This document shows positions 20,212 to 23,211 of a stretch of 64,000 bases of DNA, piece by piece (within the stretch, counting starts at the first letter, position 1; every line of letters begins with the position of its first letter). The position numbers and the translations under genes are program-made. The DNA is from Escherichia coli (GTDB taxonomy: Bacteria; Pseudomonadota; Gammaproteobacteria; Enterobacterales; Enterobacteriaceae). The stretch lies in assembly GCF_003334785.1 (NCBI RefSeq), contig NZ_QOWV01000006.1, one strand, 5' to 3'. The notes under the pieces are model-generated. The model had not been told where the DNA came from, ran no database searches, and was given only the letters and a program-made list of their open reading frames with translations.

Positions 20212-21477
20212 ATGAGAAAAATAGTGGCCATGGCCGTTATTTGCCTGACGGCTGCCTCTGGCCTTACCTCTGCTTATGCGGCGCAACTGGCTGACGATGA
20301 AGCGGGACTACGCATCAGACTGAAAAACGAATTGCGCAGGGCGGATAAGCCCAGTGCTGGCGCGGGAAGAGATATTTACGCATGGGTACAGGGAGGATTG
20401 CTCGATTTCAATAGTGGTTATTATTCCAATATTATTGGCGTTGAAGGCGGGGCGTATTATGTTTATAAATTAGGTGCTCGTGCTGATATGAGTACCCGGT
20501 GGTATCTTGATGGTGATAAAAGTTTTGGCTTTGCCCTGGGGGCAGTAAAAATAAAACCCAGTGAAAATAGCCTGCTTAAATTAGGTCGCTTCGGGACGGA
20601 TTATAGTTATGGTAGCTTACCTTATCGTATTCCGTTAATGGCTGGCAGTTCGCAACGTACATTACCGACAGTTTCTGAAGGAGCATTAGGTTATTGGGCT
20701 TTAACACCAAATATTGATCTGTGGGGAATGTGGCGTTCACGAGTATTTTTATGGACTGATTCAACAACCGGTATTCGTGATGAAGGGGTGTATAACAGCC
20801 AGACGGGAAAATACGATAAACATCGCGCACGTTCTTTTTTAGCCGCCAGTTGGCATGATGATACCAGTCGCTATTCTCTGGGGGCATCGGTACAGAAAGA
20901 TGTTTCCAATCAGATACAAAGTATTCTCGAGAAAAGCATACCGCTCGACCCGAATTATACGTTGAAAGGGGAGTTGCTCGGCTTTTACGCGCAGCTCGAA
21001 GGTTTAAGTCGTAATACCAGCCAGCCCAATGAAACGGCGTTGGTTAGTGGACAATTGACCTGGAATGCGCCGTGGGGAAGTGTATTTGGCAGTGGTGGTT
21101 ATTTGCGCCATGCAATGAATGGTGCCGTGGTGGATACCGACATTGGCTATCCCTTTTCATTAAGTCTTGATCGTAACCGTGAAGGAATGCAGTCCTGGCA
21201 ATTGGGCGTCAACTATCGTTTAACGCCGCAATTTACGCTGACATTTGCACCGATTGTGACTCGCGGCTATGAATCCAGTAAACGAGATGTGCGGATTGAA
21301 GGCACGGGTATCTTAGGTGGTATGAACTATCGGGTCAGCGAAGGGCCGTTACAAGGGATGAATTTCTTTCTTGCTGCCGATAAAGGGCGGGAAAAGCGCG
21401 ATGGCAGTACGCTGGGCGATCGCCTGAATTACTGGGATGTGAAAATGAGTATTCAGTATGACTTTATGCTGAAGTAA
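20212..21477 (+). CDS. uidC: Outer-membrane glucuronide porin-like protein UidC
   Basis: 421-aa ORF with signal peptide and C-terminal aromatic residue typical of beta-barrels. Confidence 0.92.
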   Translation: MRKIVAMAVICLTAASGLTSAYAAQLADDEAGLRIRLKNELRRADKPSAGAGRDIYAWVQGGLLDFNSGYYSNIIGVEGGAYYVYKLGARADMSTRWYLDGDKSFGFALGAVKIKPSENSLLKLGRFGTDYSYGSLPYRIPLMAGSSQRTLPTVSEGALGYWALTPNIDLWGMWRSRVFLWTDSTTGIRDEGVYNSQTGKYDKHRARSFLAASWHDDTSRYSLGASVQKDVSNQIQSILEKSIPLDPNYTLKGELLGFYAQLEGLSRNTSQPNETALVSGQLTWNAPWGSVFGSGGYLRHAMNGAVVDTDIGYPFSLSLDRNREGMQSWQLGVNYRLTPQFTLTFAPIVTRGYESSKRDVRIEGTGILGGMNYRVSEGPLQGMNFFLAADKGREKRDGSTLGDRLNYWDVKMSIQYDFMLK

Positions 21478-21484
21478 AAAATAA

Positions 21485-21511
21485 CGCCGGAGAGAAAAAT
21501 CTCCGGCGTTT
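21485..21511 (+). terminator. Intrinsic terminator of the uid operon
   Basis: Hairpin CGCCGGAG-N8-CTCCGGCG followed by TTT, 8 nt after the uidC stop. Confidence 0.75.
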
Positions 21512-21540
21512 CAGATTGTTGACAAAGTGCGCGTTTTTTA

Positions 21541-21640
21541 TGCCGGATGCGGCGTAAACGCCTTATCCAGCCTACAAAAACTCATAAATTCAAAGTGTTG
21601 CAGGAAAAGGTAGGCCTGATAAGCGTAGCGCATCAGGCAA
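21541..21640. repeat. REP/BIME-like palindromic units (two copies)
   Basis: GCCGGATGCGGCGTAAACGCCTTATCCAGCCTAC and AGGCCTGATAAGCGTAGCGCATCAGGC resemble enterobacterial REP sequences. Confidence 0.7.
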
Positions 21641-21665
21641 TCTCTGGTTTGTTTTCAGATGAAAA

Positions 21666-21694
21666 CGCCGGAGTGAAAATTCTCCGGCGTTTTG
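21666..21694. terminator. Bidirectional hairpin terminator just past the ydgA stop
   Basis: CGCCGGAG-N8-CTCCGGCG hairpin with flanking A-run and T-run; near-duplicate of the hairpin at 21485. Confidence 0.7.
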
Positions 21695-21702
21695 GCCGTG
21701 AA

Positions 21703-23211
21703 TTACTGCTGCGGAATTGCCGGTACAGCCGGAACGTTAAGAGCTGGCATCGCAAACATGCCAACAAAATCTTCTAACGACATTTTCTGCCCATTTAACG
21801 TTATCTGACCGTTAGCATATTGCAGGCTGGTGGTGATGGTATTGTCCTGCAAGGTGGTCAGACGGAACATCTGCCCCATTGCTGATGCACCTTCAACTTG
21901 CTGTTTCGCCAGTTTTTTCGCTTGATCTTCCTGATAACCTTCCAGCTTCGCTACCTGAGTCACAAACTCAGTTGCCATATCCACCGGAATGGTCAGTTTC
22001 GCATCCAGAGATTTAACCGAACGATCTACTTCCTGCGCCAGCGTTTGCGGCGCTTCTTTAGTCGTTGCCGGATCTTTCAGGAACAGCGACAGATTCAGGG
22101 CACTTTCACCCTGACTGTTTTTCCAGCTTAGCGGCGCGATAGTAATCACCGGATCGCCTTTCAGCATCAGCGGCAGGGCGCTAAAGAAGGCTTCCGTCAC
22201 TTTCTCCTGATAAAGTTCGGGGTTGTTGGCAATTTCTGGCTGTGCCAGCAGCGCCTGAGTTTGCGCGTTATATTGCTGGCTAAACTGATGCCAGGCTTCA
22301 CCATCAATCTGGCCGACTTTTAAAGTCAGCTTGCCGCTGCCCAGATCCTGATTCTGTACCTTCAGGCTGTTTAGCGAGTAATCCAGTTGGCTATTGATCG
22401 TTTTACCGTCATTGACCAGATCCGATTTACCGCTGATCTCCATGCCTTCCAGCAGTGCCAGTTCTTTGCCTTCCACTGAAATGGTCATTTTTTCCAGTGA
22501 CAGTTTTTGATTTCCTACACGCTCACCAAAACTTGCCAGCGTGCTGGAACCGTCGGTTTTCAGATTATTAAAGGTCAACTGCACTTTCTGGTTGTATTCG
22601 TTAACTGCGTCTATCCGACCACTTTGCGCCTCCCCGGAAAGGGAGATGGCTTTGCCGTCTCTGTCAGCATTTAACTGGAACTCGCCGCCGCTAAAGGCGA
22701 CTTTTTCATCCTTTTGCTCGTAATTCAGTGGCTTGAGCGAAATATCGGAACTGGAATCACCGCTGTAACCAATGCGCGAGTTAATCTCAAAAGGCGTTTC
22801 ACCTTTTGCCATATCAAACAGTGGTTTGCTTACTTCGTTATTAACCAGCGTGGTTTGAATTGATGCCATCGACGGGATCAGGTTCAGTTTTTTAAGCTGG
22901 GCAAGCGGGAAGGGACCATGATCAACCGATTCGTTGAAGATGACGCTCTGACCGCTTTTAATCCACGGATTTTCTTTCCCGGCAATGGGTTTCACCAACA
23001 GTTGCAACTGGCTGCTGAATACGCCGCGATGATAGTTTTGATAACTCACTTCCAGGTTGGATTCAGGAGCTGTCAGTTTGAGTTGCGCGTTCGCCTGCGC
23101 GACCATGTCTTCGAGATGGGTTTCAATCTTCTTGCCTGTATACCATGCGCCGCCTGTCCAGACTACGCCTAGCGCAACAATGACGCCTACCGCTACCAGC
23201 GATTTATTCAT
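21703..23211 (-). CDS. ydgA: DUF945-family envelope protein YdgA
   Basis: 502-aa ORF with N-terminal signal/anchor (MNKSLVAVGVIVALGVVWTGGAWY). Confidence 0.9.
   Translation of the reverse strand: MNKSLVAVGVIVALGVVWTGGAWYTGKKIETHLEDMVAQANAQLKLTAPESNLEVSYQNYHRGVFSSQLQLLVKPIAGKENPWIKSGQSVIFNESVDHGPFPLAQLKKLNLIPSMASIQTTLVNNEVSKPLFDMAKGETPFEINSRIGYSGDSSSDISLKPLNYEQKDEKVAFSGGEFQLNADRDGKAISLSGEAQSGRIDAVNEYNQKVQLTFNNLKTDGSSTLASFGERVGNQKLSLEKMTISVEGKELALLEGMEISGKSDLVNDGKTINSQLDYSLNSLKVQNQDLGSGKLTLKVGQIDGEAWHQFSQQYNAQTQALLAQPEIANNPELYQEKVTEAFFSALPLMLKGDPVITIAPLSWKNSQGESALNLSLFLKDPATTKEAPQTLAQEVDRSVKSLDAKLTIPVDMATEFVTQVAKLEGYQEDQAKKLAKQQVEGASAMGQMFRLTTLQDNTITTSLQYANGQITLNGQKMSLEDFVGMFAMPALNVPAVPAIPQQ

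Follow-up and report, generated by a model that had tools for sequence, protein, structure and literature searches.

A BIME-1 element bracketed by direct copies of one hairpin at the uidC–ydgA locus of Escherichia coli

The DNA considered here (the window) is a stretch of 64,000 nucleotides from contig NZ_QOWV01000006.1 of the Escherichia coli assembly GCF_003334785.1. Within it the convergent genes uidC and ydgA are separated, stop codon to stop codon, by a spacer of 225 bp, which holds one bacterial interspersed mosaic element (BIME) of the BIME-1 type, a unit with two repetitive extragenic palindromic (REP) sequences, and a near-identical hairpin on either side of it. REP sequences and BIMEs are the most abundant repeats in E. 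coli. BIME-1 and its polymorphism are already known; the part of interest is a recurrent, hairpin-sized target duplication, which bears on how these repeats move. The twin hairpins are direct duplicates, specific to their locus, which abut the ends of the element. What has been duplicated is the hairpin target in its entirety, in direct orientation and flush with defined element ends.

Twin hairpins around a BIME-1

The stop codon of uidC lies 5 nt ahead of the left hairpin copy (L), and the right copy (R), whose stem reaches 21662-21693, lies 10 nt from the stop codon of ydgA; a stable hairpin is retained 5-10 nt past the stop codon of each gene. The original prediction, made from the letters of the window, had noted a stem, CGCCGGAG-N8-CTCCGGCG, occurring twice in this spacer. 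It is present exactly at 21485-21508 and 21666-21689, with no third site in the 64-kb window when two mismatches are allowed. Chance similarity of the two copies was rejected; shuffled sequences gave a mean of 0.01 matches to the pattern, and none of 100 shuffles reached two. The full repeat extends beyond the stem first noted to 29 nt, AACGCCGGAGAGAAAAATCTCCGGCGTTT (21483-21511) versus AACGCCGGAGTGAAAATTCTCCGGCGTTT (21664-21692), with 27 of the 29 positions identical in direct orientation and 181 nt from start to start. Both mismatches lie in the loop, which reads AGAAAAAT in L and TGAAAATT in R. As the stem is palindromic, it is the loop that shows orientation, and by this measure the copies are direct, not inverted. 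An inverted (fold-back) duplication was rejected on the same ground.

On either strand each copy forms a stem of 11-12 bp with a folding energy of about -20 to -23 kcal/mol (z scores of -5 to -6). When 21478-21700 is folded as DNA (-49.5 kcal/mol, z score -6.8), the REP doublet pairs internally and both terminator hairpins stand separate. The bidirectional terminator action which the original prediction had proposed is plausible for the twin hairpins, judging from their sequence. The rule of the terminator scan, a hairpin followed by a T-run, was passed only by L on the minus strand, the remaining T-runs being TTT (L, plus strand), TTTT (R, plus strand) and TTTT then C (R, minus strand). A small transcription unit inside the block was considered and dropped, as the promoter scan found no sigma-70-like promoter in 21000-22200.

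The element between the hairpins is an ordinary BIME-1 (RIP/RIB). Two REP-like palindromes had been predicted here, and both are found, in inverted orientation and with complementary arms (inverted-repeat pairs I3 and I8); for the first of them we take Y to be the proper name in the Gilson/Bachellier nomenclature. The REP-derived Rfam model naRNA4 gives this Y REP a sub-threshold 37 bits against a gathering score of 59.5, and beyond it a scan of 20500-22700 at permissive E-values returned only chance-level matches, the hairpins falling in no RNA family. The putative IHF core of the linker agrees with 8 of the 9 specified positions of WATCAANNNNTTR, and the linker consensus of the family reads AATTCAATATATTGCAG. 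The unit as a whole spans 152 bp (21512-21663) versus a well-conserved consensus of ~153 bp. Across the family BIME-1 proper starts CAGATTG and finishes CAGTCTC, and the hairpin repeat at BIME-1 loci spans the stem-closing A to its partner T. In the consensus of 49 copies the ends read TCAGATTGCTGACAAA and TTTGTCATCAGTCTCA; 13 of their 16 positions are complementary, and they can equally be read as extended arms of the REP doublet.

BIME-1 has been described as a y and a z1 REP in single copy, joined by a long conserved L linker and with a frequent IHF site (Ton-Hoang 2012, PMC3333891). The spacer contains inverted Y and Z1 REPs, a long linker with an IHF-like core and outer motifs, in single copy and in an extragenic position at gene 3' ends. 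It differs from the published definition in its flanking hairpins, and its right outer motif is degenerate, failing a 4-error match to the right-end consensus. The hairpins and the REP pair had been likened together to a composite BIME-type element. This description holds for the middle, which is BIME-1, but not for the hairpins, which lie outside the BIME: they are locus-specific, one copy is kept in the empty allele, and the family consensus stops where they start. No further BIME was found in the window by REP consensus patterns. The corresponding ydgA–uidC spacer of MG1655 (NC_000913.3, 1691361-1691585) has no annotated repeat feature, despite a complete BIME-1. The features of the region are collected in Table 1.

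Table 1. Features of the uidC–ydgA region, in coordinates of the window
Feature	Position	Strand	Remarks
uidC coding sequence (glucuronide porin)	20212..21477	+	Open reading frame; name from RefSeq records 100% identical over the stretch
Left hairpin copy (L)	21483..21511	.	AACGCCGGAGA-GAAAAA-TCTCCGGCGTT plus T; read on the minus strand, TTATTTTTTACTT comes next
Left outer motif of BIME-1	21512..21540	+	CAGATTGTTGACAAAGTGCGCGTTTTTTA, starting CAGATTGTTGACAAAGTGCGCG; matches family consensus CAGATTGCTGACAAAGTGCGCTTTGTTCA (49 full-length copies)
Y-type REP / palindromic unit, 35 nt	21541..21575	+	TGCCGGATGCGGCGTAAACGCCTTATCCAGCCTAC; 2 mismatches to the Y consensus
L linker, 34 nt	21576..21609	+	IHF-like core ATTCAAAGTGTTG at 21588-21600
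Z1-type REP, 30 nt, inverted relative to the Y REP	21610..21639	+	GTAGGCCTGATAAGCGTAGCGCATCAGGCA; exact pattern match
Right outer motif of BIME-1, degenerate	21640..21663	+	ATCTCTGGTTTGTTTTCAGATGAA, against consensus ATTTTGCGTTTGTCATCAGTCTCA
Right hairpin copy (R)	21664..21692	.	Loop TGAAAATT; read on the minus strand, TTTTCATCTG comes next
Diverged block, last ~110 nt of ydgA	21693..21812	-	~120 nt abutting R; K-12 and empty-allele strains differ at 19 sites
ydgA coding sequence (DUF945 protein)	21703..23211	-	Open reading frame, convergent with uidC; RefSeq name from identical records

Presence, absence and recurrence of the arrangement

Allele counts were taken from 5,426 complete E. coli genomes, in which the uidC–ydgA locus is essentially bi-allelic. 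The filled state (hairpin, BIME-1, hairpin) is present in 1,751 of them (~32%), and a query made from the empty allele is covered in 3,666 (~68%). Strain comparison had been proposed as a check for repeat-associated polymorphism, with invariance among relatives as the result that would speak against a mobile origin; instead, presence and absence of the block are found, the empty alleles being shorter by exactly 181 bp. In O103 RM8385, Ecol_448 and GPT24-01 the empty spacer is 44 bp long and carries a single hairpin, the difference being made up of the 152-bp element and a further hairpin of 29 bp. The hairpin present in the common empty alleles is identical to L. The uidC hairpin has a single site in each genome and so is not part of a dispersed repeat. 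Amongst filled alleles there is little variation: the L and R loop types are fixed across ~1,750 genomes and the allele as a whole is nearly monomorphic. It was seen in K-12 and BL21-type strains, the empty allele in O103, O111, O145, O157, APEC O18 and the divergent strains examined. In the annotation uidC is a frameshifted pseudogene in Ecol_448 and an N-terminally truncated pseudogene in EA7.

Precise loss, from hairpin–element–hairpin to a single hairpin, has happened repeatedly. A query consisting of the K-12 allele minus the element, with the right-hand copy kept, is covered fully by 13 genomes, six of which combine a K-12-type right flank with an empty site. In the four of these six that were inspected the YdgA protein is identical to that of MG1655. 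Two of them, PS2Canimalfeces12 and EA7, carry an R-type loop, which is otherwise confined to filled alleles, and two, H9Ecoli and 1919D62, an L-type loop. Because the loop types differ, and because the R type is found elsewhere only in filled alleles, the four genomes stem from no fewer than two separate events of precise deletion between the twins, in which the crossover fell in different arms. Unequal exchange of this kind should also yield a reciprocal product, a tandem array, and such an array is present in E. albertii NBRC 107761 (L044, 1220-1945), where 4.1 tandem copies, 95% matching, repeat a 177-nt unit made up of a 24-nt hairpin, AACCGACACCTTTTGGCGTCGGCT, and a BIME-1.

The arrangement is not peculiar to uidC–ydgA. 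In genomes without the uidC block the next-best matches fall at tsx–yajD and yfiE–srmB, where a hairpin is immediately followed by a BIME-1 that has the left motif of the uidC copy. At yfiE–srmB the block is present in 2,525 genomes, with twin hairpins AATGTCGGGATTAAACCCGGCATT and AATACCAGGCTTAAACCTGGCATT, and the empty alleles, found in O157:H7 and another strain, are shorter by 176 bp and carry a single hairpin, AATGCCGGGCTTAAACCCGGCATT. Wherever the twin copies differ this single hairpin matches one of them, and agreement of this kind at every differing position makes it resemble the common ancestor of the twins and not a simple chimaera. One change in the R copy is compensatory, from a G-C to an A-T pair. 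A search for homologues of a C-terminal fragment of SrmB returned mostly fragments, leaving one Salmonella contig and one enterobacterial contig as usable outgroups; both Salmonella enterica and the other enterobacterium (L139) have a single homologous hairpin at the site. As the outgroups have a single hairpin, the filled state at yfiE–srmB is derived, and the duplication came with the insertion.

Two further observations concern this second locus. In E. coli 1368KP an IS621 transposase gene of the IS110 family lies inside the yfiE–srmB BIME-1 (L009, 2140-3120); some insertion sequences (IS) target REPs, and the IS621 insertion fits this habit. The 3' end of yfiE differs by ~10% between filled and empty alleles over the 240 nt beside the indel (L005, 366-605, versus L007 and L008). 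The empty alleles also differ from one another there, so this part of yfiE is generally hypervariable.

A scan for the core of the Z1 REP, with one genome per species, returned at least 120 stretches, mainly from E. albertii, two records titled E. coli, Pseudocitrobacter and Citrobacter. Among the matches listed, 49 BIME-1 copies have both conserved ends; they come from five genomes (E. albertii, two records titled E. coli and two Pseudocitrobacter), and the counts that follow refer to this set. Twins were scored where a direct repeat of at least 90% identity lay 0-3 nt from both element ends, with mismatched pairs of flanks as the null. This test on full-length copies supersedes an earlier flank comparison in which the tail of the null had been inflated by tandem BIME arrays. 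Direct repeats of 16-23 nt that satisfy it flank 17 of the 49 copies. Mismatched flanks score as high in 0.1% of trials, all of them pairs of orthologues from sister genomes. Each of the 17 repeats forms a GC-rich hairpin, of about -9 to -18 kcal/mol, with a sequence peculiar to its locus; in every one the direct identity is equal to or greater than the reverse-complement identity, and clearly greater where the loop is asymmetric. Thirteen of the 17 loci lie between convergent open reading frames, whose stop codons mostly stand 22-43 nt away from the element.

Hairpins also meet the ends of copies that have no clean twins. Counted end by end, a hairpin adjoins 54 of the 98 element ends at an offset of 0-4 nt (nearly all at 0), as compared with one of 98 control windows displaced by 45 nt. 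A hairpin is present at both ends of 16 copies, at the left end only of 11, at the right end only of 11 and at neither end of 11. Decayed twins were recognized in ~6 further copies, and the one-sided copies may be decayed twins or the result of a second mode of insertion. E. albertii, for example, is without the right copy which E. coli E69 keeps at what is apparently the same locus (L025, L128). At gudD–barA, the divergent Escherichia genome SCPM-O-B-8794 (L103) has a BIME-1 with perfect twins (23/23), whilst in ordinary E. coli (CP53; L142, 125-330) a BIME-1 lies in the opposite orientation at the homologous hairpin, its second copy decayed. The two orientations would be explained either by two separate insertions into this hairpin or by an inversion by way of the palindromic twins. 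This locus had been considered as a third case of presence and absence, and was dropped, since the element occurs in both lineages and it is the orientation that differs.

Exact matches to the Z1 REP were also encountered in metagenome bins labelled Oscillospiraceae, Bacteroides and Bacteroidales (L012, L046, L074), with a BIME-1 context in L012. The contigs that carry them are probably mis-binned enterobacterial sequences.

Origin of the duplication and history of the alleles

It is probable that the convergent uidC and ydgA genes once shared a single GC-rich terminator-type hairpin, at which a 152-bp BIME-1 was inserted with duplication of the whole hairpin on both sides, a change reversible by exchange between the copies. 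On the mechanism proposed here, insertion would be directed to hairpin-forming palindromes and the duplication made at insertion. If each strand were cut at the outer base of the palindrome, the stagger would be the size of the hairpin, and the element would be joined before fill-in. A staggered cut at the palindrome base fits best with copies that are direct and whose length tracks that of the hairpin; a fold-back or hairpin-capped intermediate is disfavoured, because it would give inverted loops and none were seen. A candidate enzyme would be the Y1 (HUH) transposase associated with REPs, whose substrates are hairpins. Such a transposase, TnpA-REP, cleaves single strands on the 5' or the 3' side of the hairpins to which it binds, and its gene has been reported in E. 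coli K-12 (PMC3333891). The insertion would be tolerable in that each gene retains a hairpin a few nt past its stop codon, and the twin hairpins, with their palindromic interior, may permit the slippage or unequal exchange by which the element would be deleted or amplified.

A more general proposal can be formulated, in which BIME-1 is a non-autonomous transposon that targets structure, that is, any terminator-type hairpin, with a cut at each outer hairpin base and a target duplication which comprises the whole hairpin and so varies in length from site to site. We regard this as tentative and, on balance, unlikely. If it were true, it would represent an integration geometry not yet described for elements of the REP and REP-associated tyrosine transposase (RAYT) system. 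It would also account for the position of REPs at the 3' ends of genes, most of all between convergent ones, for the tolerance of BIME-1 (both genes keep a terminator) and for the ease with which it is lost or amplified.

Other routes to the same arrangement have to be weighed. That hairpin, REP pair and hairpin form a larger composite element which moves as a unit might be supposed from the way hairpins abut the conserved element ends at many loci, and from megablast matches at yfiE–srmB and tsx–yajD that run slightly into the neighbouring hairpin. Against this, the hairpin sequence differs at each locus, with cross-locus pairs of flanks at the level of the null except for orthologues, the empty alleles and the outgroups retain one copy of the same hairpin, and the uidC hairpin has only one place in each genome; the composite element is almost certainly not the explanation. 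Hardly more credible is a tandem pair of similar terminators, one belonging to each gene, between which a BIME-1 landed, so that the empty alleles would be later deletions and nothing would have been duplicated. Deletion between copies does occur, and at uidC–ydgA either allele may be the ancestral one within E. coli. However, no genome examined has two hairpins without the element, the orthologous sites in E. fergusonii, Salmonella and the enterobacterium L139 have a single hairpin, and the ~15 independent loci at which both copies are flush would require a precise landing between twins each time.

An origin in replication or repair merits closer attention, even if we consider it improbable. 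Here the arrangement would result from template switching at a fork stalled by the hairpin, or from resolution of a cruciform by a host junction nuclease, with capture of an excised BIME-1 and gap filling. Long palindromic structures stall replication, and the interior of the element is a long palindrome, to which the fold energy given above (-49.5 kcal/mol, z score -6.8) belongs. The length of the repeat, from 8 to 29 nt, follows that of the hairpin, unlike the fixed duplication of a classical transposase, and Y1 transposases are without known target duplication. Yet the ends of the element are sharp and conserved, and its first and last bases do not vary from junction to junction, which points to recognition of ends and not to random switching, and no microhomology fit to guide a switch back was seen between the right end of the element and the sequence preceding the hairpin.

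Insertion with duplication of the hairpin is the reading we prefer, and several observations weigh against it. No de novo BIME-1 insertion was observed, and the step of cleavage and fill-in is one that we infer. IS200/IS605-type Y1 transposition, the accepted model for the mobility of REPs, produces no target duplication (Nunvar 2010). Clean twins flank only about a third of full-length copies, so that duplication is either non-obligatory or subject to decay. One full-length BIME-1 of Pseudocitrobacter (L109, L054) has a flush direct repeat of 8 nt, ATGCTATC, which is not a hairpin, and a hairpin is accordingly not an absolute requirement for a flanking duplication. At uidC–ydgA itself the right outer motif of the element is degenerate in the window copy; the R loop resembles those of the outgroups, whereas L is the hairpin of the common empty allele; a remnant resembling the right end of a BIME-1 stands at the same spot in E. 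albertii; and filled and empty alleles are 12-15% apart in a 120-nt block of ydgA beside R. An old excision, or introgression, may thus lie behind the common empty allele, which would then not represent the state before insertion.

The history of this locus can be followed some way through the outgroups and the flanking sequence. E. fergusonii has a single hairpin after ydgA, with the loop TGAAATT, and neither a BIME nor uidC. E. albertii likewise has a single hairpin after ydgA, with the loop AGAAAATT; in one of its contigs (L130, 4040-4070) this hairpin is abutted by GAAATTCTGCTAATTGTCATCAGCCTTA, which agrees with the BIME-1 right-end consensus at 21 of 28 positions and has neither a REP nor uidC beside it, the contig ending 210 nt beyond. 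A further candidate outgroup, L132, whose YdgA is 86% identical, was rejected, as its empty spacer is of the E. coli type and identical to that of O103. The divergence of the block abutting R ends sharply: over the next several hundred nt of ydgA filled and empty alleles differ at no more than 1 position per 40, the divergence in the rest of the gene being 0-1%, and on the uidC side there are 0 differences in 400 between K-12 and O103. Within the last 51 codons of ydgA, 13 of the 18 differences lie between synonymous codons. Some sites of the block are shared by K-12 and E. albertii, others by the empty alleles and E. fergusonii, the distance to E. albertii being 11.7% for K-12 and 14-17.5% for the empty alleles. 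This pattern of sequence suggests that filled and empty alleles are haplotypes of old or introgressed origin, brought together by recombination with one endpoint at the hairpin.

For uidC–ydgA alone, it is therefore a serious possibility, though somewhat short of an even one, that BIME-1 entered the ydgA terminator before the split of E. coli and E. albertii, the empty allele of E. coli being a derived, precise excision or an introgression. The E. albertii remnant that abuts the ydgA hairpin would be expected on this account, as would the closer distance of the K-12 block to E. albertii; the K-12 R loop, TGAAAATT, is near those of E. fergusonii and E. albertii, the empty alleles sharing AGAAAAAT with L, and recent excisions are documented. 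On the other hand, the filled allele is nearly monomorphic and was met in K-12 and BL21-type strains, the O-serotype and divergent strains examined being empty, independent insertion into the same hairpin is plausible in the light of the opposite orientations at gudD–barA, and the empty block agrees with E. fergusonii at some synonymous sites. Whichever E. coli allele is ancestral, the derivation of hairpin–element–hairpin from a single hairpin holds, because a single hairpin is the state of E. fergusonii.

Relation to known systems and significance

Parallels can be drawn with several known systems. Bacterial class C group II introns home to intrinsic terminators, and they share with the present case a structured, palindromic target at gene ends in place of a sequence motif. 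The same may be said of the REPs found inside small palindromes in other phyla (Di Nocera 2013, PMC3733652). In these systems, in contrast, insertion takes place after or within the palindrome, the whole hairpin is not duplicated, and the chemistry of retrohoming is unrelated. The mobility of REPs through RAYTs is the current hypothesis, and the literature gives its mechanism as unknown. Doublets of inverted REPs (REPINs) are likewise a proposed mobile unit, which can fold as one long hairpin and whose excision has been seen in populations (PMC3116915), and the associated enzyme acts on single strands, which it binds and cleaves beside hairpins (PMC3333891). The published models differ in that they assume IS200/IS605 chemistry, with no larger target duplication and no named target, whereas here a terminator-like hairpin is duplicated whole.

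BIME-1 also resembles miniature inverted-repeat transposable elements (MITEs) such as Correia and ERIC/IRU, with its ~150 bp of non-coding sequence, possible imperfect terminal inverted repeats (13/16 in the consensus) and direct target repeats at both ends (PMC3184786). The duplications of MITEs are short, however, with a fixed length set by the parent transposase, and those described here measure 16-29 nt, equal the local hairpin and vary with the locus. The duplication is thus not of fixed length, being 29 nt at uidC–ydgA and 8-23 nt elsewhere. We know of no parent IS with BIME-1 ends, and no search for such an IS was made. An analogy for the loss of the element is provided by the Tn10/Tn5 paradigm and the DIRex method, in which precise excision occurs by slippage between target duplications and is stimulated by inverted repeats. 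Here too direct repeats flank a palindromic interior, one copy is kept, and the crossover points vary, as the L-type and R-type loops attest. The difference lies in the repeats, which in the present case are hairpins of 20-29 nt and hence inverted repeats of one another as well.

Within the BIME literature, one abstract (Bachellier 1997) is said to speak of "excisions of a whole BIME-1". A passage of PMC1187871, which cites Bachellier 1997, states that the presence and absence of BIME-1 among isolates had already been reported. Nothing relevant on direct repeats or duplication was found in Ton-Hoang 2012 or Nunvar 2010, and no account of duplicated hairpins or direct repeats flanking BIME-1 in the BIME and REP literature searched, which did not cover Bachellier 1997, so that an earlier description is possible.

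At uidC–ydgA itself the effect is modest, the two alleles constituting a common and apparently neutral polymorphism. More generally, a BIME-1 with its twin hairpins alters the 3' untranslated regions of two genes at once, and indels of 150-180 bp due to BIME-1 split alignments at hundreds of intergenic sites. The twin terminators around BIME-1 are hotspots for precise deletion and amplification, and possibly for inversion. Above all, a recurrent insertion scar which consists of a whole terminator hairpin, flush with the sharp ends of the element, constrains the mechanism by which REP and BIME sequences spread.

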